Part shown: piece by piece, positions 28,073-58,600 of the stretch
Position numbering within the stretch: the first letter of the stretch is position 1
Layout of the letters: each line of letters begins with the position of its first letter
Source: an uncultured Candidatus Saccharibacteria bacterium
Lineage (GTDB): Bacteria > Patescibacteriota > Minisyncoccia > Minisyncoccales > Staskawiczbacteraceae
Assembly (NCBI GenBank): GCA_964479955.1
Contig: CAYZNK010000002.1
Coordinates: 71,489-135,488 of the forward strand
Length of the DNA stretch: 64,000 nucleotides
Direction of reading: 5' to 3'
Made by a program: the position numbers and the translations under genes
Notes under the pieces: model-generated
Databases searched by the model: none
The model's input: only the letters and a program-made list of their open reading frames with translations
Told to the model about the DNA's origin: nothing

Positions 28073-28122
28073 TTCACAGCCCCGCCTTGGCGGGGTTTTT
28101 TTTATATGATATAAAAAAATAA

Positions 28123-33149: not shown

Positions 33150-33208
33150 CATTGTGCGACAAGAGCCTCTTACGAGGCTTTTGTTTTAATTTATGGTATA
33201 ATATATTA

Positions 33209-35713: not shown

Positions 35714-36094
35714 ACATATATAACAATTAAAAACATAAAGACAAAATCACTATATATTCTTCCCGTCATTGCGGGATCCCCCGCTAAGCGGGGGAAAAAC
35801 TAAACAGCGTTTTAAGAATATCCGTGAAGGCAGGTTTTAAAGGTCTGTCTTCACGGGTATTTTTTCTTCTTGGCTGAACGGAAAGCCTTTTGATAATTGA
35901 ATAATGGAAACCAGTTTTAAAAACTGGGAAAAAATTGAATTAGCGGAGTGTCCACAGTACTGAAAATTTCTACGAAAATTTTAGCGCTGAGAGAATTCAC
36001 TTCGTGTAATTCGTTTCTTAAAGTTGTTTCGAATCAAAGCTTGTCGAGTGCTTAACTCGACAGTAGTTTATTCTAACTAGAGTAATCAACTTTT

Positions 36095-37556
36095 TTTTGA
36101 GAGTTTGATCCTAGCTCAGGGTGAACGCTGGTAACGTGGATACCGGCATGCAAGTCGAGCGGACCGCAAGGTCAGCGGCGAACGGCATAGTAACACGTGG
36201 GTACAAACCCTTTTCTCGGGTATAGCCAGCCGAAAGGTTGGGTAATTCCCGATAGTTCTCGCAAGAGTAAAGTCGCAAGACGGAAAAGGATTGGCCCGCG
36301 GCCTATCAGATTGTTGGCAGGGTAACGGCCTACCAAGTCTATGACGGGTAGGGGGCGTGAGAGCGCGACCCCCATGAATGGCACTGCGACACGGGCCATA
36401 CTCCTACGGGAGGCTGCAGTCGAGAATCTTCCGCAATGGGCGAAAGCCTGACGGAGCGACGTTACGTGAATGAAGAAGCCCTTCGGGGTGTAAAGTTCTT
36501 TTATGTGGGAATAAGTTATTGAAGGTACCACATGAATAAGAGGATCCTAATTCTGTGCCAGCAGGAGCGGTAATACAGAATCCTCAAGCGTTACCCGGAT
36601 TTATTGGGCGTAAAGGGTCCGTAGGTGGTAAAGTAAGTTTTGAGTTAAACCTCATCGGCTTAACCTTTGAGCTATTCAAAATACTGCTTTACTTGAGGGC
36701 GTTATGGGTGAACGGAACCGACGGAGTAGGGGTGAAATCCGTTGATATCGTCGGGAACACCAAAAGCGAAGGCAGTTCACTGGGGCGACCCTGACACTGA
36801 GGGACGAAAGCGTGGGTAGCAAAAAGGATTAGATACCCTTGTAGTCCACGCCGTAAATGATGAATACTAGCTATTGGCAGTGTCGACCCTGCCAGTGGCG
36901 AAGCTAACGCGTTAAGTATTCCGCCTAGGAAGTACGGTGGCAACACTAAAACTCAAAGGAATAGACGGGGACTCACACAAGCGGTGGACCATGTGGCTTA
37001 ATTCGACAACAAACGAAGAACCTTACCAGGTCTAGAAATCTGCATGAAAGCCTTCAGAAACGTTGGCCCTTCACAAGACATGCAGACAGGTGCTGCATGG
37101 TTGTCGTCAGTTCGTGTCTTGAGACGTACCGTTAATTCGGGTAACGAACGCAACCCTTGCCGTGTGTTTTAAATGTCACACGGGACTGCCCGAGATAATT
37201 GGGAGGAAGGCGAGGATGACGCCAAATCAGCATGGCCCTTTGATGACCTGGGCCGCACACGTGGTACAATGGCCGGTACAATGGGTTTCGATGCCGCAAG
37301 GCGGAGATTAATCTCATCAAAACCGGTCTCAGTTCGGATTGAGGGCTGAAACCCGCCCTCATGAAGCTGGAATCGCTAGTAATCGCCAATCAGCTATGTG
37401 GCGATGAATACGTTCCTGAGTCTTGTACTCACCGCCCGTCAAGCCAAGCGAGCTGGGGATAGCCGAAGTGCCCGCAAGGGCCCTAAGCTAGATTCAGTAA
37501 GAGGGGCTAAGTCGTAACAAGGCACGGCTAGCGGAAGCTGGTCGTAGATCATTTTT
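36095..37556 (+). rRNA. rrs: 16S rRNA (stand-alone; no linked tRNA or 23S)
   Basis: Starts near gagagtttgatcctagctcag and ends ...aagtcgtaacaaggcacggctagcggaagctggtcgtagatcattttttt. Flanked by a processing stem (36013-36036 pairs with 37690-37713) and a terminator at about 37762-37790. Confidence 0.9.
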
Positions 37557-37840
37557 TTAAAATTTTGTATAGAAACCTTTTGGTTTATATACAAAATGGA
37601 ATGTAGTCGGCTCAGAGTGATTCGATAAACTCAGTTCGATGAGTATATCGAATTGTTCTGAAGCATTTTAGCAGATTTGCTTGAAAATCGCATTCGAAAC
37701 AACTTTAAGAAACTAATTTTTCCACAGAAAAATTATCCTGAGATTTTCGAAGGGTAAGACATTACTCCGTCAAAAGCGGAGTTTTGTTTTGATTAAGGTT
37801 GTTCTTGAAAATTAGTTGGAAAAGAATTAAGCTATCTTAT

Positions 37841-39600: not shown

Positions 39601-39696
39601 CTGGTGGACCCGGGGAGGAGTTGCCCGAAGGCATTGCTGTCGCCTTCGGCGCCACAATTCGGGGGGATTCTCCCCGCGCCACTAAATAAAATTTAG
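39601..39696 (-). repeat. tRNA-3'-end-associated hairpin element (copy at tRNA-Ala)
   Basis: Minus-strand order: AT palindrome actaaat-aaa-atttagt, inverted copy ggcgcggggagaatc, ccccccgaattg, hairpin gaaggc-gacagcaat-gccttc, then a direct copy ctccccgggtccac plus CA. 39604-39617 is identical to 39696-39709. Confidence 0.7.
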
Positions 39697-39767
39697 TGGA
39701 CCCGGGGAGAATCGAACTCCCAGCTTCTCGTTGCAAACGAGATGTGTTGCCACTATACCACGGGCCC
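39697..39767 (-). tRNA. tRNA-Ala(UGC)
   Basis: Acceptor gggcccg/cgggtcc with the G3:U70 pair, anticodon arm tctcg-ttTGCaa-cgaga, T arm gggag-ttcgatt-ctccc. Confidence 0.8.
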
Positions 39768-39859
39768 TCATATTGATTTTTATTTTATCTTAATTCTCGG
39801 TTTTTTTCAAGTTAATTGATGTTTGTTGTAAAAGATGATAATTTTAAATCAAATCAGAT

Positions 39860-41899
39860 ATGTGGCAGAGCTTTAGAAAAAATCCCAGCAACAATGCGGT
39901 TTTGACAATTGAAGATAATGGTTTTAAAAAATCAGAAACTTTTGTTTTTAAAACGGGCGGATTGATTTGGGCAACGCCGGTAATTGATGAAAAAGAAACA
40001 ATATATGTGGGGTCAGCAGACAAATATTTTTATTCAATTGACAACACGGGAAACTTAAATTGGAAGTACAAAATTACAGATAGTTTGGACTCTTTGATAG
40101 ATTCTGCGGGAGTTATACTGGATGACAAAGTTGTTATTCCCGGAGGAGATGGGTATATCCACGCAGTTAACAGGGAGACAGGAGAGTTGATTTGGAAATT
40201 TAAAGCTTATCACGCAAAAGATTCAGAGCAAGCAAGCGGCGAATTAGTCAATTCTCTTGAAGGAAATATAGCAATAAATAACGGCCTTTTGTATGCGGGT
40301 TCAGACAATGGCTATATGTATTGCTTGGACAAAAACGGCAAAGAAATCTGGAATTTTAAAACAGGGATGATGATTTGGTCTTGCCCCTGTTTTTTTGATG
40401 AAAAAATAGCATTTGGGTCTTTAGACGGATATTTATATTTGCTGGATTCTTCAAACGGGAAACTATTAGATAAGAAAAAAATAGGGGAGATAAAGGCCTC
40501 ACCTGTTTATGACAAAGAAAATAATTTGATATTTGTGGGCACAAGCTCTGGAAAAATGTATTCCTTCAAAATACTTCAGGGAAAATTAAAAAAGAGATGG
40601 GTTTTAAATTTTAAAAAAGAAATTTATTCTTCTGCTGCATATTATCAAAACAATCTTTATTTTGCCGCAGGAAATAGTTTTTATTCTGTGGATTATAACG
40701 GAAAAACTTTGTGGAAGTACAATACATTTTCTAAAGTTTCATCTTCTCCTGTTATTATTGAAGGCCAAGGCGTAATTTTTGGGGCAGAAAACGGAAAACT
40801 TTATGCTTTGAATTTTGAGGGCCAAAGAATTTGGTCTTTCAAAACTTCAGACGGTTTGCATAAGGTAAATTTGGATTCTTCTCCTGCCATAAGCAAAAGT
40901 GGAAACATATATGTTGGCTCTTATAATGGAAATGTTTATAAAATTCCCTATGAATATTGCCTAAAAAATAACGATGAAAAATGCGAGTTTGGCGGCATAT
41001 CTGATGAGCCAATTTATGAAGGCAAAAATTTTAAATTTGAAGACGCAGACTCAAATTTAAAAGACAATTTTGGGGCGGGCCTGTCAGAACCATTAAGAAT
41101 TAAAATGTTTGCCTTTAAAAATGGAAGCTACTTGGAAAATTCTGCTTTGAATTCTGTAAAAATAAGCGTAAGCCCCAATGTAAGCTTTACATATCAAATA
41201 TCTTCTGACGGAAAATACATAGATATTATTCCAAATGATTTTTGGCAAGAAAAAACAGATTACAAAATATCTATAAAAGCAAATTATTATCAAAAAACTA
41301 ATTTTATTTTTGATTTATTTAAGAGTTTCTTTTTGCCCAAAATTGAAGGCACTTTAAGTTTTTCAACAAAAGAAAAAGGATGTGAAAATTTTCAAGAGCA
41401 AAAGTTTTTTATAAAAGACCTTTCTTTGTATCAGCCTTTGGCAATGAATACTTTGGTGGCGGCTGCCCTAGACGGGCAAAAATACATTGCAGAGTTTTCA
41501 TTAAAAGAAGAAAATAAAATTGGAATAATTTTAAACCCGGCATATGAATCTGACGGAAAATTTTTAAAAATGCCCGCCTCATCGGCGGGTGAAAAAATTC
41601 AAAGCAGGCAGATAGTTTTGAGCGGAATTTTAAACGGAAAATATTTTGTTGCAAAGGGAAGCCTTGAATTGTCTGCAATGGGCGGAACAATACCATTTAA
41701 AGATGCAGTATTTTCCGGTAAAATTGAAAACAACAAAATTGAAAACGGAATGTTTTTTACAAAAATAAACTGCCTTAAAATAAAGGGAAACTCAAAAAAT
41801 TACAATTTGCCGTTTAATATAATAAGCGAAATCTGCGGCAGAGACCTTAATATAACAGTTCTGGCGGGTTTTTCAGGAGAAAGCATTGTTGAATTTTAA
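39860..41899 (+). CDS. PQQ-like beta-propeller repeat protein
   Basis: Repeated YVGS.DG.(L/M)Y.(L/I)D...G...W blades. 679 aa. Confidence 0.7.
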   Translation: MWQSFRKNPSNNAVLTIEDNGFKKSETFVFKTGGLIWATPVIDEKETIYVGSADKYFYSIDNTGNLNWKYKITDSLDSLIDSAGVILDDKVVIPGGDGYIHAVNRETGELIWKFKAYHAKDSEQASGELVNSLEGNIAINNGLLYAGSDNGYMYCLDKNGKEIWNFKTGMMIWSCPCFFDEKIAFGSLDGYLYLLDSSNGKLLDKKKIGEIKASPVYDKENNLIFVGTSSGKMYSFKILQGKLKKRWVLNFKKEIYSSAAYYQNNLYFAAGNSFYSVDYNGKTLWKYNTFSKVSSSPVIIEGQGVIFGAENGKLYALNFEGQRIWSFKTSDGLHKVNLDSSPAISKSGNIYVGSYNGNVYKIPYEYCLKNNDEKCEFGGISDEPIYEGKNFKFEDADSNLKDNFGAGLSEPLRIKMFAFKNGSYLENSALNSVKISVSPNVSFTYQISSDGKYIDIIPNDFWQEKTDYKISIKANYYQKTNFIFDLFKSFFLPKIEGTLSFSTKEKGCENFQEQKFFIKDLSLYQPLAMNTLVAAALDGQKYIAEFSLKEENKIGIILNPAYESDGKFLKMPASSAGEKIQSRQIVLSGILNGKYFVAKGSLELSAMGGTIPFKDAVFSGKIENNKIENGMFFTKINCLKIKGNSKNYNLPFNIISEICGRDLNITVLAGFSGESIVEF

Positions 41900-41964
41900 T
41901 AAAAATTGATGATATTTATTGGGTTTATTATTGAAAAGCCGTCCTTAATTGGGCGGTTTTTGCG

Positions 41965-41993
41965 TTGACAAAAAATAGCGCAACGAGTAAAGT
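41965..41993 (+). promoter_or_regulatory. sigma70-type promoter of cassette 42057..43073
   Basis: TTGACA, 17-nt spacer, TAAAGT. Confidence 0.55.
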
Positions 41994-42056
41994 AAAAATG
42001 TGTTCTTTACATATTGCCCTAAATAGCTGGGCGTAATCAAGTTTGGGAGTTTTGCC

Positions 42057-43073
42057 ATGAGTAATGTTGTTTCCACAAAGTCTGTAGAAGAAGCGAAACC
42101 CGTTCACCCGTTGGCTAATTTTATGCCAACATCTTTCCAGTCGTTTGACGATTGGCTTGCAAGGTGGAATAGTGCTACAGTTACGCAGGAAAGATTGGGA
42201 TTGCTTCATTGTATGCAAACTATTGAATATTGGCTTGAGAAAACCGAGCAATCCGTGTTTTTTCTTCTTGACGTAGCTAACGGATGGGAAACAGGAAACC
42301 CTTTTCGTTGTTATCATCGTCATTACAATGCTGATGACATCAATAAGAGTCGCGAAATCATTTCGCGCAAGGCATTTGATGTCTTATGCGTTAAATTGTT
42401 TGCTTCTGGCAAACAAGATTACCCGCCTTTATGGTGGTGGATGTTGGAAAAACAAGAGACTTTTGACAAACTTCTTAACTTTTGCGGCCCCGAAGCTAGG
42501 AATTATTATAAACCGTTTGCAGGAGGGCAGGTGAGCCACCAGGTGGAGGTGTATGGCAGTTTTCTGCAAGAGTTTAGCCGTTTGGGATGGACTTATTCGC
42601 GGCGCTCCAATAGACAAGGCGAGGTTGCAAACGAGGATGAAATTCGGGCGCGCCTTGTTGCTGCCCGACCTCAATTTATAGATATCCTTAGGTATTTGGG
42701 TCAACTTAATTGGCTTAATCGGCCGATGGGTTGTTATGGTGGTGACTTTCCAGAGCTTGATAAACCCTCTATTAGTAAATTGAGGGAAATCGTTTTTGAG
42801 ACAGAATTATTGCTCCCCCCACAGGATTTTCATTCGCCGGCAGAGCATAGCCGTAAGCCGAAGAATTTGCGCGAAGCTATTCTCGGAGCTTCTGTTGCTG
42901 CAGAAGTTCTTGTATTAAATGATATCCGTCTGGCAGAGCGCAATAGAATTAAGGCAGCTTGGAGAAAATCTAGGCGCAAACACGAAAATATGGAACGTAT
43001 AAGCCGCCTGGAAAAAATTGAAAAAGCAAAAAGGACTTTGGATGAGGAGGCCGCGCGGCTTACCGGCCAATAG
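42057..43073 (+). CDS. orphan hypothetical protein (GC-richer cassette)
   Basis: 338-aa ORF with tgggag 7 nt before the ATG. Trp-rich with a basic coiled-coil tail. Terminator cctccgc...gcggagg plus T7. No family recognised. Confidence 0.7.
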   Translation: MSNVVSTKSVEEAKPVHPLANFMPTSFQSFDDWLARWNSATVTQERLGLLHCMQTIEYWLEKTEQSVFFLLDVANGWETGNPFRCYHRHYNADDINKSREIISRKAFDVLCVKLFASGKQDYPPLWWWMLEKQETFDKLLNFCGPEARNYYKPFAGGQVSHQVEVYGSFLQEFSRLGWTYSRRSNRQGEVANEDEIRARLVAARPQFIDILRYLGQLNWLNRPMGCYGGDFPELDKPSISKLREIVFETELLLPPQDFHSPAEHSRKPKNLREAILGASVAAEVLVLNDIRLAERNRIKAAWRKSRRKHENMERISRLEKIEKAKRTLDEEAARLTGQ

Positions 43074-43120
43074 GGATTTTAGTTTGAGTCCCAATCCTCC
43101 GCTGATACATTAAGCGGAGG

Positions 43121-43187
43121 TTTTTTTATTGCAATTTTATAAAATAAAAGTTAAATTAAATAAATTGAAATATGAGCTTATCAATTC
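43121..43187 (+). repeat. duplicated copy of the ychF promoter and first 5 codons (decayed copy)
   Basis: About 65 nt with 4 mismatches to 43669-43733. It reads ATGAGCTTATCAATT and then diverges to a stop. Confidence 0.8.
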
Positions 43188-43370
43188 AGCTTTGTGATTA
43201 AAATCCTACCGCGGAGATATGAAAAAATTATAACAAGTCGAGACGAATAGGAAAGAATCGTTCATTTAATATTGGTTTGATAGGGTGATGCTTGGTTGAC
43301 ATTAGCGATTTCAAGTGATAAAGTTTTAATTGGCTCTTCTTAACTCTAAACAAGAAAGGAAAGGTGAGTC

Positions 43371-43610
43371 ATGGCAAATAAAATGCCAACAGTTTATCAA
43401 CTTATACCGCCACTCGCGGTAAGAATGACCCAAGAAGTTCACATCGGAATGGGCCCTGAAGGATTTTCCCTCAAAAAGCACGAACGAGGAATTGCTTCTG
43501 GTACTCTCGGATTTTGCACAATCGAAGGGAGACCCAGATTGGGATTCCAGGTCACTTTCGCGGGTTTGGACTTTGTTCTTCCACAAGAGTTCATAGAGCT
43601 CGTTCCGTAA
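43371..43610 (+). CDS. orphan small protein (GC-richer cassette)
   Basis: 79 aa with aggaaaggtgag just before the ATG. Promoter TTGACA-17-TAAAGT at 43296-43324. Terminator ggggtggctgaacagtcaccc plus T-run. Confidence 0.6.
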   Translation: MANKMPTVYQLIPPLAVRMTQEVHIGMGPEGFSLKKHERGIASGTLGFCTIEGRPRLGFQVTFAGLDFVLPQEFIELVP

Positions 43611-43668
43611 TAAAGTGAATCTCAATCCTTCCATGGTTTGTGCCTATGGGGTGGCTGAACAGTCACCC

Positions 43669-43733
43669 TTTTTTATTGCAATTTTGTGAAATAAAAGTTA
43701 AATTAAATGAATTGAAATATGAGTTTATCAATT
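43669..43733 (+). repeat. native copy of the duplicated ychF 5' region
   Basis: See 43121-43187. Confidence 0.8.
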
Positions 43734-44789
43734 GGGATTGTGGGGTTGCCGAATGTGGGCAAGTCTACTTTATTCAAAACTCTAACTAAAAAGGAAGTTG
43801 ATATCGCAAACTATCCTTTTTGTACCATTGACCCTAATGTTGGGGTTGTTTTGGTTCCTGACCAGAGGGTTGATAAGTTAGCTGAAATATCAAAATCAAA
43901 AAAGAAAATTTATGCAACAGTGGACTTTGTGGATATTGCGGGCCTTGTAAAAGGAGCTTCGCAAGGAGAGGGTTTGGGAAACAAATTTTTGTCGCATATC
44001 CGCGAAGTGGATGCTGTGCTTTACGTTTTGCGGGCATTTAAAAATTCAGATATTATAAATACCCAACAGGATATTGACCCCTTAAGAGATAAAGAAATTT
44101 TGGATGTGGAGCTTATTTTAAAAGATTTGGAAACAATAAATAAAAGAATTGACGGATTAGAAGGTGATGTAAGAGCAGGAAAAAAAGATGCGATTAAGGA
44201 AATGGCTATTTTGCAAAAAGCAAAAGAATTTTTAACTCAGGAAAAATTATTGTGCGACATTAATTTTTTAGATGAAGAAAAAGAAATTTTAAATAGTTTT
44301 CAGCTTTTGACCTTAAAGCCAAGATTGTATTTGTTGAACGGAAAAGAGGAAGAAATAGAAGAGAGCGTAATGCAGTCCTTCGCCTCGGGCTTGGGACAAA
44401 AAAATTCCGTTTTTTTGGACGTGCAATCTGAATACGAGAGCGAAGGATTATCGCCAGAAGAAAGAGTTGAACTGGGATTGCCCGGATTGTCTGAAACAGA
44501 TGTTTTGGTAAAAAAATCTTATGAGCTTTTAAGTCTTATAACTTTTTTGACAACAGGAGAAGATGAAACACGAGCATGGACAATAAAGAGAGGGGATATG
44601 GCCCCTGTTGCGGGAGCTGCAATTCATAGCGATTTTCAGGAAAAATTTGTAAAAGCAGAAGTTGTTTTTTGGGAAGATTTAATTAAGAGCGGAGGGTACG
44701 CCAAAGCCCGCGAAAAAGGACTTATTCGCACAGAGGGAAAAGAATATGTTGTGCAAGATGGCGATGTCATCGAGTTTAAGCATGGTTAA
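43719..44789 (+). CDS. ychF: redox-regulated ATPase YchF
   Basis: [12 protein letters not shown] and [10 protein letters not shown] motifs with a C-terminal TGS-like end. Confidence 0.9.
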
Positions 44790-44932
44790 AATATATTAAA
44801 ATATATAAAGATTCAATCATACTGAGGAGCGTTAGCGACGAATGGGTTATTGAATTTAGACACGGATAACATCAACGAATAACGAATTCCGCCTGCGGCG
44901 GATTACGAATATACGAATTCATAAAAGCGAAA

Positions 44933-45235
44933 ATGGAATTTACTATCAATAATATAGAAGAAAATGTTGTAGTTGTTGCCAGGAGAATTGGTTATTTGAT
45001 TATTGATACAAAAGAAAATGGGGAATATAATTTAGTTAGGAGATTAACGCAGGGAAATTATCCAAGGTTTCATATTTACGCAAAAGTTCAGGGAGATAAA
45101 TATATTTTTAGTTTGCACTTAGACCAAAAAGCTCCCATATATAAAGGGAGTCATGCGCACAGCGGAGAATATGCCGGGCCTGTTGTGGACGCTGAAGCAG
45201 ATAGAATTTGCGAAGTGTTAGGAAAATCAGAATAA
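44933..45235 (+). CDS. hypothetical protein
   Basis: 100-aa ORF with AT-rich backbone composition. No family recognised. Confidence 0.55.
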   Translation: MEFTINNIEENVVVVARRIGYLIIDTKENGEYNLVRRLTQGNYPRFHIYAKVQGDKYIFSLHLDQKAPIYKGSHAHSGEYAGPVVDAEADRICEVLGKSE

Positions 45236-45370
45236 AACCCTATCACCAATTTCAGCCAAGTTAAAAGGTAAGATATACTTTGAAGGCGAAGTGCCTTCGG
45301 CTGTTAATTTTGTAATATAAAGTCAGCGGTGAAATTGGTGAGGGGTTATTGCGACGGTAAGGTATAAATC
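45236..45370. repeat. hairpin-core element, copy A
   Basis: About 80% identical by eye to 57591-57732. Terminal inverted repeat is aaccctatcaccaatttc / gaaattggtgaggggtt, and the inner hairpin is gaagg-cgaagtg-ccttc. Confidence 0.75.
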
Positions 45371-45499
45371 CTTCGACTTCGCTCAGGCCTTCGGCTCTGA
45401 TAGTCTCGGACTCGAAGAGATATTTTCTGCGGAAAATAAAAGCCCTGCAAACCGTAGAAGAGCAGTGAGCAGGGCATAAAGAAGGATGAATCCGACGGA

Positions 45500-45823
45500 T
45501 TATTCAACGTATCCGCAAGAGTTTTCAATGGAGTAGTAAAGAGTGATTTCTGCACCCTCCTTGATCTTTTCGTGACAGAATTCTCCTTTGCAAGATAATC
45601 CTTTTATCCTGCAGACCAATTTGAAAAGCTGGAATTTGGTTTCGTCAAAGACGATAGACATCACCTCTGCTGAAATGGCAGTTGACTTCTCCTGATAAGA
45701 CAGGAAGAAAACAGGAAGATTTCCGGGACGCCTTTTAATGAGGGCTTCCCATAAGGGTAGGTTGGTTGGACCGTCTTTGACCAAGATTTTTTCCGTTTCT
45801 ATTTCCAATGCGGCGTTACTCAT
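45500..45823 (-). CDS. orphan hypothetical protein (GC-richer cassette)
   Basis: 107 aa with agggaga 5 nt before the ATG. Terminator gccctgc...gcagggc plus T-run at 45440-45478 (minus strand). Confidence 0.65.
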   Translation of the reverse strand: MSNAALEIETEKILVKDGPTNLPLWEALIKRRPGNLPVFFLSYQEKSTAISAEVMSIVFDETKFQLFKLVCRIKGLSCKGEFCHEKIKEGAEITLYYSIENSCGYVE

Positions 45824-45871
45824 TGCAATCTCCCTAAAGAGCGTGTTTTGTAAATTTACTCCCTATTATTT

Positions 45872-45900
45872 ATTATATCATAATAAAATACCTATGTCAA
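45872..45900 (-). promoter_or_regulatory. consensus sigma70-type promoter of cassette 45500..45823
   Basis: On the minus strand: TTGACA, 17-nt spacer, TATAAT. Confidence 0.65.
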
Positions 45901-45947
45901 ATCTTTCACCATTGAAAAATACTTTTTAAAAATAAACATAAAGAATC

Positions 45948-46760
45948 ATGAATTTATATAATCTAAAGCAAAAATACAGCCAGTATGATGAAGATTCAAT
46001 ATTAAAAGTTTTATATGAAGATAATCATATAATTGCCGTTGTAAAGCCAGCTAGTGTTTTAACGCAAGCTGATGGGTCAGGAGAAAAATGTTTAATGGAC
46101 ATTGTTAAAGATTATTTAAAAGAAAAATATAAAAAACCGGGAAATATTTTTTTGGGATTGGTGCATAGGTTAGACAAGCCGGTGCAGGGGATTGTGCTGT
46201 TTGCAAAAACTTCAAAAGGGGCTTCAAGGCTGTCAGAGCAGTTTAGAAACCACACTATACAAAAAACTTACCACGCTGTTGTTTTTGGCAAGCCAAAAAT
46301 GGACAAGGGAGAAATTAAAGAAAAAATAAATAAAATTTCTTTTTTTGCAGAAGGCTTTGCAGAAAAATCAGATAAAGAGCTTTTGGAAGAAATTAAAAAG
46401 GCAACAAAAACAAGGACAGCTGAGCTTAGCTGGGAAGTTATAAAATGTGGAAAACCCTTCGACACGGCTCAGGGCAAAAGTTGTTACACACTTTTGAAAG
46501 TTTTACCAAAGACCGGAAGGTTTCATCAAATAAGGGTGCAAATGGCAAATATGGGAAACCCTATTTTGGGAGATAGAAAATATATCCCCGATTCTATTAC
46601 CTGCCTGTCCGGCAGGCAGGTGCGACAAACTAAAGATATATGGAAAGATGAAAAATCAATTGCGCTGGCTGCTACGGGAATTGTTTTTAAAACAGCCACA
46701 GGAGATAAACAAATCAGCTTGGAAATTCCTTTACCTGAAGAATGGAAAAAATATATATAG
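45948..46760 (+). CDS. RluA-family pseudouridine synthase
   Basis: HRLDKPVQGIVLFAKT catalytic motif and FHQIRVQM. Carries two GC-rich in-frame inserts. Confidence 0.8.
   Translation: MNLYNLKQKYSQYDEDSILKVLYEDNHIIAVVKPASVLTQADGSGEKCLMDIVKDYLKEKYKKPGNIFLGLVHRLDKPVQGIVLFAKTSKGASRLSEQFRNHTIQKTYHAVVFGKPKMDKGEIKEKINKISFFAEGFAEKSDKELLEEIKKATKTRTAELSWEVIKCGKPFDTAQGKSCYTLLKVLPKTGRFHQIRVQMANMGNPILGDRKYIPDSITCLSGRQVRQTKDIWKDEKSIALAATGIVFKTATGDKQISLEIPLPEEWKKYI
46600..46629 (+). repeat. CCTGCCTG...CAGGCAGG palindromic element, copy inside the RluA-family CDS
   Basis: cctgcctg-tccgg-caggcagg-tgcgacaaa with a 9-bp perfect stem, translated as CLSGRQVRQ. Confidence 0.7.
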
Positions 46761-47001
46761 GTATAGCCAAACGCCTTATATTTCATCTGCTAGTTTGCGG
46801 GATATCAATCCTTCGACACGGCTCAGGATCTCCGCTCGTTGTTGCTCGCTACGAGTTATCCACAGTGTTAAGGGTTGATTTGTTTTTTCAAAATAGGGAT
46901 AATAATATAATATGCAAAAAGGTCGATTTATCCGTTAAATCGCCGAAAGGCATCGGATAATTTAGATTTAATTTGCTTTATCAACTAATATAATAAAAAA
47001 T

Positions 47002-47688
47002 ATGACATATAGTGAATGGTTTTTATCAATTATCCAGCCGTTTTTGCAGGAATTTATATTCTTTTTGGCTAATTTGTTATTAGCTATTATTGTTTTCGTA
47101 ATAGGATATCTGATTTCTGCTGGAATTGGGAAATTGATATCAGAAATATTAAGAAGCCTAAGGTTTAACAAGCTCTTTGAAAAAGAGGGATGGAGAAAGG
47201 CATTGCAAAGGGCAAACATAGAGGTTAACCCTGCCGAATTTATAGGGGCAATTTTCAAATGGATTTTTGTGGTTGTTTCTTTGGCAGTTGCCGTTGATGT
47301 TTTAAACCTTACAATGTTTACAGGGCTTTTGACGCAGGTGATTAATTACTTGCCAAACCTGATTGCAGCCGTATTGGTATTTATTGTTGCAATAATCATT
47401 TCTGATATTATAGAAAAAATTGTCAGGATTACAGTTGAAAGATTAAAAGTAAATTATGGATATGTTGCTTCGTCAATTGTAAAATGGGCAATTTGGGTTT
47501 TTGCTTTTTTCTTGATATTGGACAGCCTTTTGCCTGCATCTCTTTTGGTTAAAACCTTGTATACCGGAATAGTTTACGGAGTAATAGGAGCTTTGGCATT
47601 AGGCATTGGATTGGCAATTGGACTGGGCGGAAAGGAAACTGCCGCAAAAATTATTTCAGAAATGCACAGAAGGTTTGAAGAAAGATAA
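47002..47688 (+). CDS. membrane protein with TM-helix repeats (mechanosensitive-channel-related pattern)
   Basis: 228 aa with 5-6 TMs. Tentative family call. Confidence 0.45.
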   Translation: MTYSEWFLSIIQPFLQEFIFFLANLLLAIIVFVIGYLISAGIGKLISEILRSLRFNKLFEKEGWRKALQRANIEVNPAEFIGAIFKWIFVVVSLAVAVDVLNLTMFTGLLTQVINYLPNLIAAVLVFIVAIIISDIIEKIVRITVERLKVNYGYVASSIVKWAIWVFAFFLILDSLLPASLLVKTLYTGIVYGVIGALALGIGLAIGLGGKETAAKIISEMHRRFEER

Positions 47689-47921
47689 AACATAGATATT
47701 TGACTGCCTCATTATTTTGAGGCTTATAAAAGATAAACGCTCTCCTTAAAGATTTTGGAGAGTGAAACAAAAAGACGCGTACGTACCGCGCCTTTTTGTT
47801 TATATCCATACTACATTTTATTGTGCGATAGCTGTCAAATTCATTTAGAATTTTGAAAACAAAAAGAGAGCTGGTCAGTGCTCTTATTGTTTAACGACCG
47901 GCAACTTACTGTCGCCTTGAT

Positions 47922-48068
47922 TTAATCAGGAAGTAAAGCGCCGCACCTGTTGCAGGAATGCAACACTCGGCCGTACTTATATCGATGGGGGATTGGCGTG
48001 TGGTATCCGCCATTGGGACAGCCACAAAGCCATACAACACGAATGTACTCCCAAATCTTTTTTAGCAT
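47922..48068 (-). CDS. orphan 48-aa zinc-ribbon-like peptide (GC-richer cassette)
   Basis: Own translation: MLKKIWEYIRVVWLCGCPNGGYHTPIPHRYKYGRVLHSCNRCGALLPD*. aaaggaaaa lies upstream. Minus-strand terminator is agagc-actgacca-gctct plus T-run. Below the ORF-track size cutoff. Confidence 0.4.
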   Translation of the reverse strand: MLKKIWEYIRVVWLCGCPNGGYHTPIPHRYKYGRVLHSCNRCGALLPD

Positions 48069-48345
48069 GGCAGTTTTTCCTTTCTTGTTATAGAAAATTT
48101 GACTCGCCGATATGTGGTTGGTAGATTAACTACTATTAAGTTAATAATATCATATATAAAATACTTTGTCAATAGTAAATTTAAGATTGAGAAAGATTAA
48201 AAATTTAAAATTCCGACTGAACACAGCGGGGGCGGTTTGGCTATTGAGTCTTCACCATTTGTAACGGAGAACTTGCGATAGGTGTTTAAACAAACCTTGT
48301 AAATAGCAATACCATAGATTTTTTTCATTGGGAAATGGTGAAGAC

Positions 48346-48374
48346 TTGACAGGGGTTTAAAAATAAATTAAGAT
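48346..48374 (+). promoter_or_regulatory. 23S-5S rRNA promoter
   Basis: TTGACA, 17-nt spacer, TAAGAT. The right arm of a 14-bp inverted repeat abuts the -35 element. Confidence 0.55.
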
Positions 48375-49020
48375 ATAATTACATGATGAAAAAACAAACC
48401 AATAAATTTAACAAAACAAGCGGATGATTGTCTGACTTTTTGTGTTAGTAGATGACCGCTTGAATAAGCGGTTTTAAATTTATTGAAAATCAGTTTGCCG
48501 GCGATTGAAAATATAAATTGTTTTCAGCCGCGGGTTAATTGATTGAAGCGGAAGCAAAGATTGCTTTTTGAAAATTTAACCCTGTTAAATGTTTTAAATA
48601 ACAAATTGCCTACCAGCAATTTTTAACAGGTTCTTCCCAATTAATTTTAGACATGGGGTCTTTTTAATTGGGGAAAGTAGGTAAGTCCTGTTAAAATTTT
48701 AACAGGATAAAGCATAAAATTAAGTTCACATTTGCGTTGATGATTCAGCGCAAAAAAGTAAACTTACGCAAAAAGATAAGCTTAACAATTAAGTTTATCG
48801 AAGGATAGGTTATAAGCGAATGGCGGATGCCTTGGGATATTGATGCGATGAAGGACGTGGCGTGCCTGCGATAAGCATCGGGGAGGTGGCTAGCAACCTT
48901 TGATCCGGTGATTTCCGAATGGGAAAACCTTATTGTGTTAATCCACAATAACCCCGCCTTGGCGGGGAGCGTACCCGGTGAAGTGAAACATCTCAGTAGC
49001 CGGAGGAAAAGAGAACAAAA

Positions 49021-49289
49021 GTCCTACAACTTACAAATTTTATCAATTTAGCGAAGCGAATTTTGAGACAAATTCGCGACGCGAGGAGCAGTGCGTGCCA
49101 AGTGGCACGAGAGCGACGAAGCAACAAAGAATTTGGCCAAAATTCGTTCGCCCGAAGGGAAACGAAAAAAATGGCTGATTTCTTTGTTGCAACTTCGTTA
49201 ACGTAGTTAACACTATGTTTCCTCGTTGCGCCTCGAAATCATCACATTTTTTCGTTTCTAAATATGACGAAATTTGTAAGTTGTAGGAC
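49021..49289 (+). other. 23S insertion sequence 1 (IVS-like), closed by a 20-bp perfect helix
   Basis: gtcctacaacttacaaattt (49021-40) pairs with aaatttgtaagttgtaggac (49270-89). It lies between GAGGAAAAGA and AGTAGTGGCGAGCGAA. Confidence 0.75.
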
Positions 49290-49346
49290 AAGTTATATCC
49301 TTAGTAGTGGCGAGCGAAAAGGATACAGCCTAAACTAATTTTTTTA

Positions 49347-49505
49347 CACCGCTACTTTTTGATAATTTTCGTAACGAAATAAAATAATTTTGCGCGAGAA
49401 TTTGGAAATGCAAGGAGGTTTGCCAAGTGGCAAGCCGACGAGCAGTTACAAATTTGTAGCCGAAATTATTAATTGCAGTAGAAAAGTTATCAGAAAGTAG
49501 CGGTG
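49347..49505 (+). other. 23S insertion sequence 2 (IVS-like), closed by a 19-bp helix
   Basis: caccgctactttttgataa pairs with ttatcagaaagtagcggtg (one G-U pair). It shares a gccaagtggca...cgacga.gca block with insertion 1. Confidence 0.7.
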
Positions 49506-49861
49506 AAATTAGGGTTGTAAGGTTGTAGCGTCAGGAGCGTTATTTATTCTTCGTATAGTCGAAGAACGAATAATGCTTGCTGAGAGAGAAAATTTAGATA
49601 AAGGTTTTAATAGAAGCACTCTGGAAAGAGGCGCCATAGAAGGTAATAGCCCTGTATATAAAAAAACTATTTATGCTCTTTGCTATGATACTTGAGTACT
49701 GTCGGGCATGATAACCTGGCAGGAATCTACCGGAACTATCCGGTAAGGCTAAATAATCAATATCACCGATAGTGAACCAGTACCGTGAGGGAAAGGTGAA
49801 AAGCAGGGGGTTGACCCCGATGAAATAGTACCTGAAACCATTTGCTTACAAAGAGTCGGAG

Positions 49862-49943
49862 GTCTTCACCTTTTGGGTGTTGAGTTTAATTGTGGAACAA
49901 AACAATTTCCACAAAAATAATTTGACCTTCAAAAGGTGAAGAC
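49862..49943 (+). other. 23S insertion sequence 3 in the helix-25 region
   Basis: gtcttcacctttt pairs with aaaaggtgaagac, a 13-bp perfect stem. Confidence 0.7.
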
Positions 49944-50586
49944 TGACGGCGTGCTTTTTGTAGAACGAGCCAACGAGTTTGAATAATCAATAGTCTAAGC
50001 CCTTACGGGGCGGAGGCACAGCGAAAGCGAGTGTTAAAAGCGCGAAAAATTATATTGGTTGTTCAAGACCCGAAGCCAGACGAGCTTACCGCGAGCAGGA
50101 TGAACCCGGGCGAAAGCCAGGGGGAGGTCCGAACCAGTGAGTCGTGCAATTCTCTTGGATGACTTGTGGTAAGGAGTGAAAAGCTAATCGAGTTTGGTAA
50201 TAGCTGGTTCTTCCCGAAACAGCTTTGGGGCTGGCGTGTACAAACTATTTTCCGGGGGTAGAGCACTGAATAGAATTCCGTGGAGTTTCTCCAGGTCTTC
50301 TAATCAAACTCCGAATACCGGAAAAACTATGTATGCAGTAAGAACGCGGGGGCTAAGCTCCGCGCTCAAAACGGAAACAGCCGAGATCATCGTCTAAGGT
50401 CCCTAAATTAGGCTAAGTGCTAAGAAGGAGGTATTTTACCCTTGACAGGCAGAAAGTTAGCTTAGAGGTAGCTATCTTTTAAAGAGTGTGTAACAACCCA
50501 CTGCCCAAACTTTCCCGCTTGCGGGAGAGAGGGGTGAGATGCGCCAAAGATTTCCGGGGCTAAAGTCTAATACCGAAGACATGGAT

Positions 50587-50712
50587 TCATTCGCATCACA
50601 CTGCGTGTGATGTTAAATGACCAAAAACCAAAAACCAAAAATATTTAATATTTTGGGATTTGAGAATTGGAATTTGGGAATTTAAGCATCGTGCGAAGCG
50701 CGATGCGAGTGA
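50587..50712 (+). other. 23S insertion sequence 4 in the helix-45 region
   Basis: tcattcgcatc pairs with gatgcgagtga. It contains a CA-repeat / UG-repeat hairpin (50621-50683). Confidence 0.65.
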
Positions 50713-51003
50713 GTGGTAGGGAAGCATTCTGAGGGCATTGAAGCAGGAGGGTAACCGACTGTGGAGCGCTCAGAAGAGAGAATGTTGGCCTGAGTAACCG
50801 CATTGCGCGTGAAAGCCGCGCACACCGAAAGTCCAAGGTTTCCTTGGCAATGGTATTCAACCAAGGGTTAGGCGGTCCTAAGGCAAACCTGAAAGGGGTA
50901 GCTGACGGACAGTTGGTTAATATTCCAACCCTTTTTTATCCGTTCAATAAAGTGCGGAATTTAGTAGGTAAAGCGATTTATTGGATTATCGTTGTTAGTC
51001 AGA

Positions 51004-51030
51004 CCTGTCTGCCGTCAGGCAGGCGCAAGA
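51004..51030 (+). repeat. CCTGYCTG...CAGGCAGG palindromic element, copy inside 23S
   Basis: cctgtctg-ccgt-caggcagg-cgcaaga. Confidence 0.6.
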
Positions 51031-51420
51031 ATGGCTAACGGAAGGTCTCTTTATGGGGCTGACTTTACTGAGCAAGTTTCCAAGAAAAGCTTTATTTAAA
51101 TAGGATAAAGAAACCGTACCGTAAACCGACACAGGTGGACAAGCGTAAGTATGCTAAGGTGAACGGGTGAAACCTCGTTAAGGAACTCGGCAAATCAGTG
51201 GCCGTAAGTTCGCAATATGGCCTGCCCGACACGCAAGTGTTTAGGGCTGCAACAAACGTACTTCAACCGACTGTTTATCAAAAACACAGCTCTCTGCTAA
51301 CTCGTAAGAGGATGTATAGGGGGTGAGGCCTGACCAGTGTTGGAATGTTAAGTTTGGGGGTCCAAGCCGCAAGGTTTGGGCTCACTGAATGAAGCACCAA
51401 TGAACGTCGGCGATAACTAT

Positions 51421-52151
51421 AGACTGACGATTGTAGTTATAAAATTTGGCTATATGCTGGAAACTCCGGGTATGTTGAACTACTATCCGTTACTATGATA
51501 AAATATATAGTAATGGAAGTAAAAATGTTTAAACGCGGACAATCAGCAGGAAAGACTTTTGACGAGAAACTCGCTAACTACTTGAGCGGTTTTACTGATG
51601 GCGAAGGAAGCTTCAATATTTCAGTAATTAATCGTGAGAAAGACTATAAACACGGCTGGAAAATCAGCTTGTGTTTCAATATTTCTCAAAAAGATGACAC
51701 AATACCAAGATTATTTAAGGATTTTCTTGATTGCGGTAAAATAAGATACCGCAAAGATGGAATTTGTTATTTTGATGTTAGAAAAACAAAAGATTTAACA
51801 AATATTGTTGTGCCATTCTTTAAAAAATTTCCAGTGCGTTCAAAGAAAAATGAAACTTTTCAGATTTTTTGTGAGGCGTTGGAGATTGTTAAATGTAAAA
51901 AACATTTAACAAAATCCGGAATGAAAAAAATTCTGGATTTGAGAAATAAAATTGTAGTTGGCAGAAAAAGAAAGTATACAAATTCAGAGATACTTTCTAC
52001 TTATAATCAAAAGAATCCTCAGAGACTATACGCCAAACCCCGCTTAGCGGGGAAGATATAGTCCGACCTGCATAGCGATATGCAGAATATAATAGAAATA
52101 TTATATCAAGATACTAAAACTGACTTAATTTAGTATTAGTAACATAAAAAG
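51421..52151 (+). mobile_element. group I intron in the helix-69 loop (after the U equivalent to E. coli U1917)
   Basis: The exon ends ...gataactaT and resumes aatcgtccaaaggtagcg. Intron guide gtagttat (51433-40) pairs with the 8 exon nt ataactat via G-U at the splice site. The intron ends in G and has the core motif aagatatagtccgacc. Confidence 0.8.
51495..52061 (+). CDS. LAGLIDADG homing endonuclease (intron-encoded)
   Basis: YLSGFTDGEGSFNISV motif. The ORF lies inside intron 1 and ends within the core motif. Confidence 0.8.
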   Translation: MIKYIVMEVKMFKRGQSAGKTFDEKLANYLSGFTDGEGSFNISVINREKDYKHGWKISLCFNISQKDDTIPRLFKDFLDCGKIRYRKDGICYFDVRKTKDLTNIVVPFFKKFPVRSKKNETFQIFCEALEIVKCKKHLTKSGMKKILDLRNKIVVGRKRKYTNSEILSTYNQKNPQRLYAKPRLAGKI

Positions 52152-52815
52152 AATCGTCCAAAGGTAGCGTAATCCCTTGCCGGGTAAGTTCCGGCCCGCA
52201 TGAATGGCTTAACGAGTTGAAGACTGTCTCAACGAGGTGCCCGGTGAAAATGCAATAGCAGTGAAGATGCTGCTTACCTGCGGCTAGACGGGAAGACCCC
52301 GGAAGCTTTACTGTAGTTTGATATTGGGTTATGGTTTTTAATGCGTAGCGTAGTGGGGAGGATATGAAACGGCATTTTCGGATGTCGCGGATCCGCCAAT
52401 GAAACACCCATCTTTGGGAATTATAATTCTAATCCACGCCTCAACGGCGGGTGACAGTGTTAAACGGGCAGTTTAAGTGGGGCACTTGCCTCCTAAAAAG
52501 TAATGGAGGCGTTTAAAGGTCAGCTAGCTTCGGATGGAAATCGAAGCGATAGTGTAAAGGCAAAAGCTGGCTTTACTGCAAGACGGCTATGTCACGCAGT
52601 TGCGAAAGCAGAACTTAGTGAACCGACTTGTTTTTATAGAAAACAAGAAGATCATCAGCCAAAAGCTACTCCGGGGATAACAGGCTGGTAGAGCCCGAGC
52701 GTCCATAGCGACGGCTCTGTTCGGCACCTCGATGTCGGCTCAACTTATCCTGGGGCTGGAGCAGGTCCCAAGGGTCCGGCTGTTCGCCGGTTAAAAAGTT
52801 ACGCGAGCTGGGTTC

Positions 52816-52846
<31 letters not shown>

Positions 52847-52884
52847 ACCGCAGGCGTTGAGTTTTGAGGAGATTTGTTCCTAGT

Positions 52885-53667
52885 AAAATTTTGCTACTTC
52901 GTAAAGTAATTTACGATGACAATTCGGCTAATAACGGTGAAACCTTAAAAGTTATGGTTCGTTGATAATCATTATTGAATTCGGTCCAATAATAATGGTA
53001 CAATTAACTTGAGGACCAATAATAATTTAAGGCAATACCGTGGGAAGTCAATCTAAAATAAATTTATCATATATAGCAGGTTTTCTGGACGGAGATGGCA
53101 GTCTTATGTTTCAAATAAAGAAGCGCAAAGATTGCAAATTAAAAAGTAGATTTATGGCAACTGTTTGTTTTTACCAAGACGGTCGCCACGAAAAACCACT
53201 TTTTTGGATCAAAAGAATTCTCGGTATCGGTTTTATTTCCCGTCGTAAAGATGGAATGACCGAACTGAGAATAAATGGCTTTAAACAAGTAAAAGAAATT
53301 TTGCAAAAGTTAATGCCGTTCATTAGATTTAAAAGAGAACAGGCAAAAGCCCTTTATGGAGCTGTTAGTCTTTTAAATCAAAAAGAAACAAGGTTATTAG
53401 ACAAAAAAGATTTACTAAAATTAGTGAATTTTATAATAACCATCCAAAAAAATAATTACATCGCCAGAAAAAAGAAAACCAAAGCAGATATTTTTAAAAT
53501 TTTAGGTCTGACCCCGTAACGACTGATCCTGAGTCCTGAGTTTATTGAAGGACGAAGGAGAGATAGAAGTGAGATATCTTCTATAACATGCCGACTCCCC
53601 AATTCGCCAGTTGGCGAAAGGGAGAAGATATAGTCTATGCACGTGGTGACACGTGGTTTAAAACATG
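52885..53667 (+). mobile_element. group I intron inside the sarcin-ricin loop (after the U equivalent to E. coli U2656)
   Basis: The exon reads ...ttcctagT | intron | ACGAGAGGACCGG. Guide gcta (52893-96) pairs with exon tagt via G-U. The intron ends in G and has the core motif agaagatatagtc. Confidence 0.7.
53040..53519 (+). CDS. LAGLIDADG homing endonuclease (intron-encoded)
   Basis: YIAGFLDGDGSLMFQI motif. 159 aa with a GTG start, inside intron 2. Confidence 0.8.
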   Translation: MGSQSKINLSYIAGFLDGDGSLMFQIKKRKDCKLKSRFMATVCFYQDGRHEKPLFWIKRILGIGFISRRKDGMTELRINGFKQVKEILQKLMPFIRFKREQAKALYGAVSLLNQKETRLLDKKDLLKLVNFIITIQKNNYIARKKKTKADIFKILGLTP

Positions 53668-53985: not shown

Positions 53986-54098
53986 CCGGTGGCGACTATG
54001 CTGGAGTTGTCCCACCTGATCCCATTCCGAACTCAGAAGTGAAATACTCTAAGGCCGATGGTAGCGCTTATGCGCGAGAGTAGGTAGTTGCCACCAGA
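53986..54098 (+). rRNA. rrf: 5S rRNA
   Basis: ccggtggcgactatgc...cccattccgaactcagaagtgaaa...gtaggtagttgccaccag. Confidence 0.85.
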
Positions 54099-57503: not shown

Positions 57504-57533
57504 CCTGCCTGCCGGTAGGCAGGTACGACAAAA
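57504..57533 (+). repeat. CCTGCCTG...AGGCAGG palindromic element, intergenic copy
   Basis: cctgcct-gccggt-aggcagg-tacgacaaaa. Confidence 0.65.
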
Positions 57534-57590
57534 TAGTCATTGCGGTTTCTGACACCGCAATGACTATTTTTATTTGCAGCAGATAAAATA

Positions 57591-57732
57591 AACCCCATCA
57601 CCAATTTCATTCAAATAAAAGGTAAGACATAGTTTTGAAAGGCGAAGCGCTTTCGGCTGTCAGTGTTGCGATACAAAGTCAGTGGTAAAATTGGTGAGGG
57701 GTTTTGCGGCGGTAAATGTAATTATCCGCCGC
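57591..57732. repeat. hairpin-core element, copy B
   Basis: Terminal inverted repeat aaccccatcaccaatttc / aaaattggtgaggggtt and inner hairpin gaaag-gcgaagcg-ctttc. Homologous to 45236-45370. Confidence 0.75.
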
Positions 57733-58449: not shown

Positions 58450-58455
58450 GTTTTT

Positions 58456-58484
58456 ATCTTAGCATATAGCAATTCTCCTGTCAA
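58456..58484 (-). promoter_or_regulatory. sigma70-type promoter driving the 58449->57733 unit
   Basis: On the minus strand: TTGACA, 17-nt spacer, TAAGAT. A second TTGACA lies 20 nt upstream. Confidence 0.55.
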
Positions 58485-58600
58485 GGGTTGTGCTAGTTTG
58501 TCAAGTTTGTTATTATTAATAAAATAAAATATTTAAAAAAATAAAAATATAATTATTTAGCAGAAAGTTGATTTTTAAAGTTGAATTTCTGCTACCCGAT

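Follow-up and report, generated by a model that had tools for sequence, protein, structure and literature searches.

How does nearly the same short, GC-rich palindrome come to lie in two housekeeping genes, in an rRNA gene and in an intergenic spacer of a single bacterial genome? The question arises from a stretch of 64,000 nucleotides (the window) of an uncultured Candidatus Saccharibacteria bacterium (assembly GCA_964479955.1, contig CAYZNK010000002.1, positions 71,489 to 135,488), in which such hairpin-forming sequences occur in the genes for an RluA-family pseudouridine synthase and a PfkB-family kinase, in the 23S rRNA gene and downstream of mrdA (Table 1). We regard it as fairly probable that all four are copies of a non-autonomous insertion sequence that is ultra-short, with the 20-nt perfect palindrome CCTGCCTGCCGGCAGGCAGG as its unit and homing-like spread as the preferred though tentative route. 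Comparison of alleles that carry and lack the palindrome shows that its insertion is real, recently active, templated, precise and flank-dependent in site choice. The original prediction, made from the sequence alone, had proposed a mobile or templated hairpin tolerated within coding and rRNA sequence, and the filled/empty allele pairs, together with orthologs free of the insert, bear this out.

The palindromic unit and its four copies

The unit has no stop codon in any of its six frames, folds as single-stranded DNA into an 8-bp stem with a 4-nt loop and, with a GC content of ~70-80%, is far more GC-rich than the window (~36%), as had been predicted. All four copies were found where the original prediction had placed them, and the encoded peptides (..TCLSGRQVRQ.. 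for the RluA copy and ..CLPDGRQTT.. for the kinase copy) are also those that it had given. It had taken the element to be ~30 nt long and to include a TRCGACAAA tail, but the filled/empty comparisons give a length of 20 nt (21 nt in the coding copies), and the tail is exact in two copies only and is native flank, being present in the insert-free RluA allele. Stems of 7-9 bp with a G-U change in the rRNA copy had been described; this holds for the RluA copy (8 bp), the spacer copy (7-8 bp) and the 23S copy (8 bp, including one G.U in the RNA fold), but not for the kinase copy, in which 5 bp are left. A chance frequency of the pattern is excluded, since CCTGCCTGN{3,8}AGGCAGG has three matches at two loci in the window against 0.00 expected in 100 shuffles. 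A scan of the window at a Hamming distance of 5 or less finds every 20-nt copy and no further convincing match. GC-rich perfect hairpins as a group are ~10-fold over-represented in the window (15 observed, 1.5 expected).

Table 1. Positions in the window of the palindrome copies, of a second hairpin insert and of the rRNA genes
Feature	Position	Strand	Sequence at the site	Location
RluA copy, 21-nt palindromic insert (canonical 20-mer plus one T)	46600-46620		CCTGCCTG-T-CCGGCAGGCAGG	RluA-family pseudouridine synthase open reading frame (ORF) 45948-46760
Target-side flank of the RluA copy	46621-46629	+	TGCGACAAA	Native RluA coding sequence (codons V/M-R-Q-T)
Kinase copy, older and partly decayed	25562-25581		CCTGCCTGACGGCAGACAGA, followed by CGACAC	PfkB-family kinase ORF 25089-26123
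23S copy, 20-nt insert	51004-51023		CCTGTCTGCCGTCAGGCAGG, followed by CGCAAG	Loop at the end of a short helix in domain III of 23S rRNA
Spacer copy, one C>T from canonical	57504-57523		CCTGCCTGCCGGTAGGCAGG, followed by TACGACAAAA	Intergenic, 8 nt after the PBP2/mrdA stop codon
18-nt hairpin insert, second family	41572-41589		GCCCGCCTCATCGGCGGG	In frame in PQQ beta-propeller ORF 39860-41899
16S rRNA gene	36093-37559			
23S rRNA gene	48803-52881			
5S rRNA gene	53988-54096			

Filled and empty alleles

Contigs or stretches of relatives and of other genomes used for comparison carry L-numbers; L001 is a contig from the Logan assembly of SRR8925719 that is 95-97% identical to window positions 39738-49794. 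The RluA site at 46600 reads CCTGCCTGTCCGGCAGGCAGG followed by TGCGACAAA, and against L001 (97% identical) the difference at 46600-46620 is exactly CCTGCCTGTCCGGCAGGCAGG, which makes a 21-nt filled/empty pair. The flanks (ctatta before and tgcgacaaac after the insert) are the same in the window and in L001, with no duplication, and the insert is also missing from L089. It adds the residues TCLSGRQ and turns a methionine into a valine. In the protein alignment, the seven residues are absent from 25 of 25 orthologs, with the (V/M)RQ that follows them retained. Because TGCGACAAA is present in the empty allele of L001 and conserved in the orthologs, it is flank and not element, and this 3' tail behaves as a target-site preference. 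In the AlphaFold model, the inserted residues 218-224 have no secondary structure and fall in the sole internal segment with a predicted local distance difference test (pLDDT) score below 50.

In the kinase gene, the net gain is likewise 21 nt, or seven residues (LPDGRQT); most orthologs read LLC-D.. without them, where the window protein reads LLC(LPDGRQT)T... The empty site is seen at the DNA level in L216 (TTATTGTG followed by CGACA), and exactly the same junction holds the canonical CCTGCCTGCCGGCAGGCAGG in L092 and a decayed copy in L214. Each filled kinase allele is 21 nt longer, comprising the 20 nt and one extra base before TTTGAA. The decayed versions share one codon position across lineages (LPAGRQA, LPDGRQT and VPEGGQA). 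A contig of the related strain (L217, 97.1% identical) has a kinase copy identical to that of the window; L213 (89% identical) is without it and has a different insert one codon upstream. In the structural model, the insert forms coil between the helices 155-158 and 167-177, so that both peptides map to predicted coil, in line with the surface loops that had been expected, and the ortholog alignments, which had likewise been expected to show insertion, leave 25 RluA orthologs and most kinase orthologs without the seven residues. An ungapped alignment to kinases in the PDB had made the kinase peptide appear native, an assignment that was rejected since close orthologs and their DNA show insertion.

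In the 23S rRNA gene, comparison with L089 (96.6% identical) reveals an exact 20-nt insertion in the window between GTTAGTCAGA and CGCAAGAATGG, again with no duplication, and the insert folds as its own 8-bp stem-loop within the loop of the native helix. The possibility that this copy is a native helix, raised by its alignment to a consensus helix in cmscan, was rejected on account of the clean 20-nt insertion relative to L089. The spacer copy has a terminator-like inverted repeat of 15 bp (57530-57570) immediately downstream and is missing in L037 and L038 (93% and 90% protein identity); its exact boundaries cannot be set because the spacer is rearranged in both.

By these comparisons, three copies (RluA, 23S and kinase) are proven insertions. 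At both exact junctions (RluA and 23S), the insertion is precise, the flanks are unaltered and there is no target-site duplication. The natural length is 20 nt, judged from the rRNA copy, and both coding copies are 21-nt outcomes, the RluA copy having an extra T in its loop and the kinase copy being followed downstream by one additional base. It is such rare 21-nt outcomes, and not the length of the element itself, that keep the copies in frame. At least two strains are evidently present in SRR8925719; one matches the window exactly over some stretches, and of the four copies the RluA copy alone is polymorphic between them: L217, L218 and the Logan contig L219 carry the kinase, spacer and 23S copies, respectively (the spacer copy in identical form), and L001 is without the RluA copy. 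The surviving copies sit where they are harmless: RluA has its copy in a loop of the protein and the kinase in a coil, and the others lie in the loop of an rRNA hairpin and in a spacer. Insertions may be frequent and mostly purged by selection, and within genes only the rare in-frame, loop-located events would persist.

Copying from copy to copy and the role of the flanks

The 23S insert and the reverse complement of the kinase copy are identical at 20 of 20 positions (CTGTCTGCCGTCAGGCAGGC), with the boundary slid by one base, and this shared sequence has two derived changes relative to the canonical one. Either one of the two copies must therefore have served as template for the other, or the same variant was the template for both. 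Similarity also extends beyond the palindrome. The RluA, spacer and kinase sites share a left flank of the form TT(T/C)ATTR and a right flank of the form (TR)CGACA, with 16 of 24 matching positions for RluA and spacer (P=0.00035) and 14 of 24 (P=0.006) for RluA and kinase, for spacer and kinase, and for RluA and the reverse-oriented 23S site; the second copy of L092 is likewise preceded by ATTTATT. Since the empty RluA allele also has these flanks, they do not belong to the insert. In other genomes, copies that share a contig form 35 pairs, of which 13 reach at least 14 of 24 flank matches, where the 99th percentile between genomes is 12. Such copies are often alike in just the ~12 nt adjoining the hairpin, as in the window, and in L178, L224/L225, L002 and L123 the outer flanks are no more similar than chance. 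No universal target motif or tag was found in 165 sites, the sole signal being an A at position -1 in 41% of them, and perfect direct repeats of at least 5 nt flank just 9 of the 165, mostly within heptamer tandem repeats. In several unrelated genomes (L010 at 8396, L174 at 346, L193 at 1815, L025 at 897 and L157 at 5848), the 20-mer is embedded in tandem repeats with a period of 7-8 nt, which yield apparent 7-nt direct repeats on both sides.

For the homing-like spread of an ultra-short insertion sequence, we tentatively suggest that a break or nick would occur at a short sequence resembling the half-sites around an existing copy, and that repair would then copy across the filled copy by means of the short flank homology. 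The extruded hairpin would evade correction, the insertion would split the site, and no host function of the hairpin would be required. Such a route would explain why the flanks are specific to a genome and the core is universal, why variants are copied exactly and why duplications are lacking. Several points weigh against it. No transposase, RAYT (REP-associated tyrosine transposase) or Y1 HUH gene is present among the 30 ORFs of the 64-kb window that were scanned against Pfam. Homology of ~12 nt per side is below the usual length for RecA-type recombination, the RluA flanks show no co-conversion from other known copies, and a clean empty site for the spacer copy was not recovered in L037 or L038. 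The route gives no reason for the identity of the 20 bases across phyla, there is no universal target motif, and the similarity of flanks in phages may come partly from shared intergenic signals such as ribosome-binding sites. Nor do the target sites of the hairpin resemble the site at which the LAGLIDADG intron of the 23S rRNA gene homes: they were considered as pseudo-sites of this I-CeuI-type intron, and the idea was rejected as local alignment scores are within background.

An enzyme encoded elsewhere could instead be responsible, in the manner of repetitive extragenic palindromic (REP) sequences or of the insertion sequences IS200/IS605: a hairpin-binding HUH/Y1 transposase of the RAYT or TnpA type would excise or copy the hairpin and insert it beside a short recognised sequence with no target duplication. 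We consider both this source of the enzyme and this manner of insertion unlikely. Copies of IS200/IS605 share a target tetranucleotide, and the copies here have a flank motif in common, are inserted precisely into unaltered flanks without duplication and, among the matches elsewhere, lie for the most part outside long ORFs. Their length of 20-21 nt falls within the range of REPs, which are described as dispersed, mostly extragenic, non-autonomous palindromes of 20-40 bp (PMC3733652). The element differs from REPs, however, in lacking the GTAG/CGTC tag, the adjoining GTCG of the minus strand being native target sequence, in its seemingly modest copy number per genome and in having copies in genes and rRNA. 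The shared flanks extend for ~12 nt on both sides and depend on the genome despite an identical core, which is a misfit for a target read by the element. Moreover, RAYT/REP pairs are species-specific, whereas the core here is identical across phyla, and neither a RAYT gene nor any other Y1 transposase was seen among the scanned ORFs of the window. With regard to IS200/IS605-derived palindrome-associated elements, the absence of duplication is shared, but the element is a single hairpin and does not have subterminal hairpins at both ends.

The same flank similarity around a universal core, the exact copy of a resident variant and the lack of target-site duplication would also be produced by templated mutation without any dedicated enzyme, in which flank-hairpin-flank fragments or nascent strands anneal at the replication fork to loci of split homology, whether by oligonucleotide-like recombination or by template switching, and the looped-out hairpin stays unrepaired and becomes an insertion. 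In yeast heteroduplexes, palindromic loops evade mismatch repair, and MutS/MutL are missing from many genomes of the Candidate Phyla Radiation (CPR). Even so, we judge both the annealing step and this manner of fixation improbable. The filled RluA allele keeps its own flank bases where these are unlike the spacer and kinase flanks, with no sign of co-conversion; the kinase and 23S copies are 25 kb apart, beyond the local range typical of template switching; and there would be no reason why this sequence should be universal and control palindromes not.

Distribution among bacteria and phages

In a scan with one genome per species, the exact 20-mer was found at at least 125 sites in at least 120 stretches from at least 120 species, compared with ~0.5 sites expected for uniform base composition (596 Gb / 4^20), and viral contigs carry it at 42 sites, which lie in 35 stretches. 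For none of three control palindromes of matched composition was there any hit. The taxa were tallied from the record titles of the matches listed, among which were 36 from the CPR, 38 from Bacteroidota and one from Ignavibacteria, 10 from Omnitrophota, eight from the Planctomycetes-Verrucomicrobia-Chlamydiae (PVC) group, 12 from Gammaproteobacteria or Pseudomonadota, six of delta-proteobacterial, Bdellovibrionales or Thermodesulfobacteriota origin, three of Thermodesulfovibrio type, one each from Elusimicrobia and Chloroflexi, and four unclassified. Seven cultured isolates (Bacteroidota) and one single-cell genome are among these matches. The original prediction had expected a lineage-specific insert; this is so for the inserts at the loci described above but not for the element, given an exact 20-mer in many phyla. 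Between genomes, the flanks of the 20-mer are unrelated and there is usually one copy per contig. Among the matches listed, ~70% of 168 exact copies are outside long ORFs, as against the window, where three of the four copies are inside genes. Searches of the literature with the exact 20-mer or with shorter substrings returned no work on the element, one substring occurring only in unrelated zebrafish NF1 work. TIGR-Tas arrays were considered as a relative and rejected, as they are tandem arrays and unrelated.

On a wider reading, CCTGCCTGCCGGCAGGCAGG would be a pan-bacterial, phage-borne mobile palindrome and the smallest self-propagating insertion unit described, spreading in a homing- or guide-like manner with its flanks specifying the next target. 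Hairpin and flanks together, as a transcript or a single strand, would then serve as a handle with two guides for a nuclease or an annealing protein, and horizontal transfer would spread the element between phyla. We hold this to be possible but doubtful. If true, it would reveal a general and unnoticed source of seven-residue loop insertions and of extra stem-loops in rRNA and tRNA remnants.

On a quite different explanation, the hairpins would not be mobile but would act as signals, for example in stabilising or processing RNA, in termination or in protein binding, and each would have been selected independently at its site. The spacer copy lies between a stop codon and a terminator-like repeat, some phage copies precede sequences that resemble ribosome-binding sites, and some copies are in the leader of GIY-YIG ORFs, all of which would fit such a role. 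Yet copies are found within coding regions, an rRNA loop and tRNA-gene fragments; the hairpin is not followed by the T-run of an intrinsic terminator, which is also the case for all four window copies, three of them inside genes; and the kinase copy has decayed to 5 bp. Rfam contains no family for the hairpins. The one-transition variant of the spacer copy occurs at 14 viral sites, and the orientation of the one-base C>T variant relative to the coding strand is mixed with no bias, so that there is no G.U signal at the RNA level. Since convergence to an identical 20-mer in unrelated contexts is also implausible, we rate independent selection of signals as very improbable.

The same 20-mer with unrelated flanks, mostly once per contig and in many projects, is a picture that contamination could resemble, and a sequencing, adapter or assembly artefact was accordingly considered. 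It is contradicted by in-frame variants of conserved length across lineages and studies, by decayed forms at the same codon position, by the presence of copies in two different assemblies, and by finds in isolates grown in culture, in one single-cell genome and in contigs with names like those given by long-read assemblers. To our knowledge, the 20-mer matches no adapter or linker sequence, and an artefact seems to us hardly credible.

A recurrent arrangement, seen for a subset of copies in other taxa, concerns tRNA genes. The 20-mer lies inside a duplicated 5' tRNA-gene fragment, in the D-loop or anticodon arm, in L129 (2100-2480), L198 (3680-4060) and L033 (490-900), and likewise in a duplicated tRNA 5' fragment in L122 (3610-3790) and L107 (4020-4165). 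In the first three, it is followed by a small GIY-YIG ORF and then by the second copy of the 5' fragment, which runs into an intact tRNA in L129 and L198; that of L033 appears to be broken up by an intron and gave no tRNA call. In L122 and L107, no ORF intervenes, and the tRNA downstream in L107 is another one. Chance would produce this arrangement far less often. No general link to GIY-YIG ORFs was seen, only ~6 of 165 sites having one within 150 nt.

Relation to known palindromic elements

Short palindromic selfish DNA is known from proteobacterial REPs, Rickettsia palindromic elements and fungal mitochondrial GC clusters. Rickettsia palindromic elements are selfish, are inserted in frame in housekeeping and RNA genes, and are tolerated because their additional peptide lies at the surface of the protein; they are ~100-150 bp long with long imperfect inverted repeats, are restricted to the genus and form several long families. 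The original prediction had likened the element to them in preserving reading frames. The likeness stands insofar as the frame is kept in both coding copies, with seven residues placed in coil in RluA and the kinase, but it fails in size and taxon: the element has 20-21 nt, and the 20-mer occurs in at least nine taxonomic groups besides the CPR. The features of MITEs (transposable elements of the miniature inverted-repeat type), terminal inverted repeats with a target duplication of fixed length, do not apply, as there is no duplication at the RluA and 23S junctions.

The GC clusters of yeast mitochondria, with which the PstI palindromes of Neurospora mitochondria are grouped among the nearest comparable systems, are also short GC-rich palindromes scattered, mostly intergenically, in an AT-rich genome (PMC8811140). 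They include in-frame, strain-polymorphic insertions in var1, are regarded as mobile, undergo gene conversion and are found near tRNA genes (PMC8811140). However, GC clusters measure tens of bp, are imperfect and variable between species, and have AG/TAG terminal repeats that are read as target duplications, whereas the element here is a perfect palindrome of 20 nt without terminal repeats or duplication, has bacteria and phages as hosts and is identical across phyla. The 'byp' inserts of Magnusiomyces are GC-rich, palindromic and situated within coding regions of an AT-rich mitochondrial genome (PMC8811140). For byps, the frame need not be kept because the ribosome skips them; both coding copies here have 21 nt and are in frame, and with the frame kept and no stops present, read-through translation would be the simple expectation. 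Sponge mitochondria have repetitive hairpin-forming elements, and Fusarium mitochondria palindromic microsatellites, both of them small hairpin formers that have invaded organelle genomes again and again (PMC2800124, PMC7218506); unlike the element here, they are organellar, variable in sequence and restricted to lineages. The element thus resembles REPs, Rickettsia palindromic elements and fungal GC clusters and yet fails to match them in tag, size, taxon and terminal repeats, and it appears to be a mobile sequence of extreme shortness that has not been described before.

What is new is a unit of 20 bases with clean filled/empty alleles between co-occurring strains, direct evidence for the templating of one copy on another, and the occurrence of one identical sequence in phages and in bacteria that are only distantly related, cultured Bacteroidota among them. 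If the mobile reading is true, the element would offer a tractable system for the propagation of minimal DNA, since there are isolates that carry it, such as Winogradskyella echinorum KCTC 22026 and Aquiflexum lacus; it would be the origin of part of the odd GC-rich insertions that are typical of peptides and rRNA in CPR genomes; and it would provide a simple annotation marker for recent gene-splitting or gene-extending insertions.

Other short hairpin inserts and the setting of the window

Other ultra-short hairpin inserts are present in this lineage. A second family has the form GCCCGCC-N4/5-GGCGGG(C) and a length of 18 nt. Its copy in the PQQ beta-propeller gene of the window is absent from L001, and L001 in turn has a 17/18-identical copy of 18 nt in reverse orientation in the YchF gene (4312-4329), where the corresponding window position 44066 is without one. 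Three hairpin indels, two of them from this family, separate the window and L001 in ~20 kb compared. A third family of mini-inserts, with the core CCTTCGAC(ACG/TTC)GCTCAGG, is found at 45367-45389, 46447-46467 and 46807-46836 and is present or absent between relatives; the copy at 46447-46467 is inside the RluA gene and encodes ..KPFDTAQGK... Further peptide inserts rich in G, A, R, P and S are visible at other positions in the RluA and kinase ortholog alignments. An identical 16-nt hairpin, CCCCGCCTTGGCGGGG, occurs at 28080-28095, where it is terminator-like and stands before a T-run, and at 48952-48967 inside the 23S rRNA gene, with related CCCCGC..GCGGGG hairpins at 4554 and 52038.

Downstream of the spacer copy by ~65 nt lies one copy of a 126-nt repeat (45235-45360 and 57590-57715, 83% identical), which has complementary ends (AACCCCATCACCAATTT ... 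AAATTGGTGAGGGGTT) and an internal hairpin, is conserved in L037 and may be a MITE or a structured RNA; it matches no Rfam family. A stretch of ~1 kb (57600-58560) is without a convincing ORF and, although conserved in relatives, has many small indels; a search of Rfam at E<=1 gave no match for it.

The 23S rRNA exceeds the bacterial model by ~1,150 nt; two insertions, of ~272 and 160 nt, are close to the 5' end, and there are other expansions besides. The gene includes a 732-nt intervening sequence at an I-CeuI-type site (..GATAACTAT^ATCGTCCAAAGGTAGCG), which carries a LAGLIDADG ORF (51495-52061), and a second LAGLIDADG-type ORF (53040-53519) lies between the annotated 23S 3' end and the 5S gene. 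Protein genes occupy the ~11 kb between the 16S and 23S genes, which are therefore unlinked and do not form one operon, and a tRNA-Ala gene (39696-39767) is on the opposite strand. The plus strand holds nearly all genes of the window. Best named homologs of the window proteins (64-70% identity) are from Candidatus Staskawiczbacteria and other Patescibacteria, so that the organism is probably a CPR bacterium, and the 30 ORFs scanned against Pfam comprise housekeeping genes, the two LAGLIDADG ORFs and one NUMOD3 nuclease-like ORF. At ~41900-43700, the window has a 338-aa ORF without a Pfam match where L089 (3275-7969) has a different, defence-type block (EcoRI-type methylase, AAA/SMC-like ATPase, NYN and GmrSD). 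The NUMOD3 ORF (33152-34024) directly follows tRNA-Thr and, with its NUMOD3 motif and a C-terminal region resembling PD-(D/E)XK nucleases (..TPDFYLP..YIEIK..), possibly encodes a homing-type nuclease.

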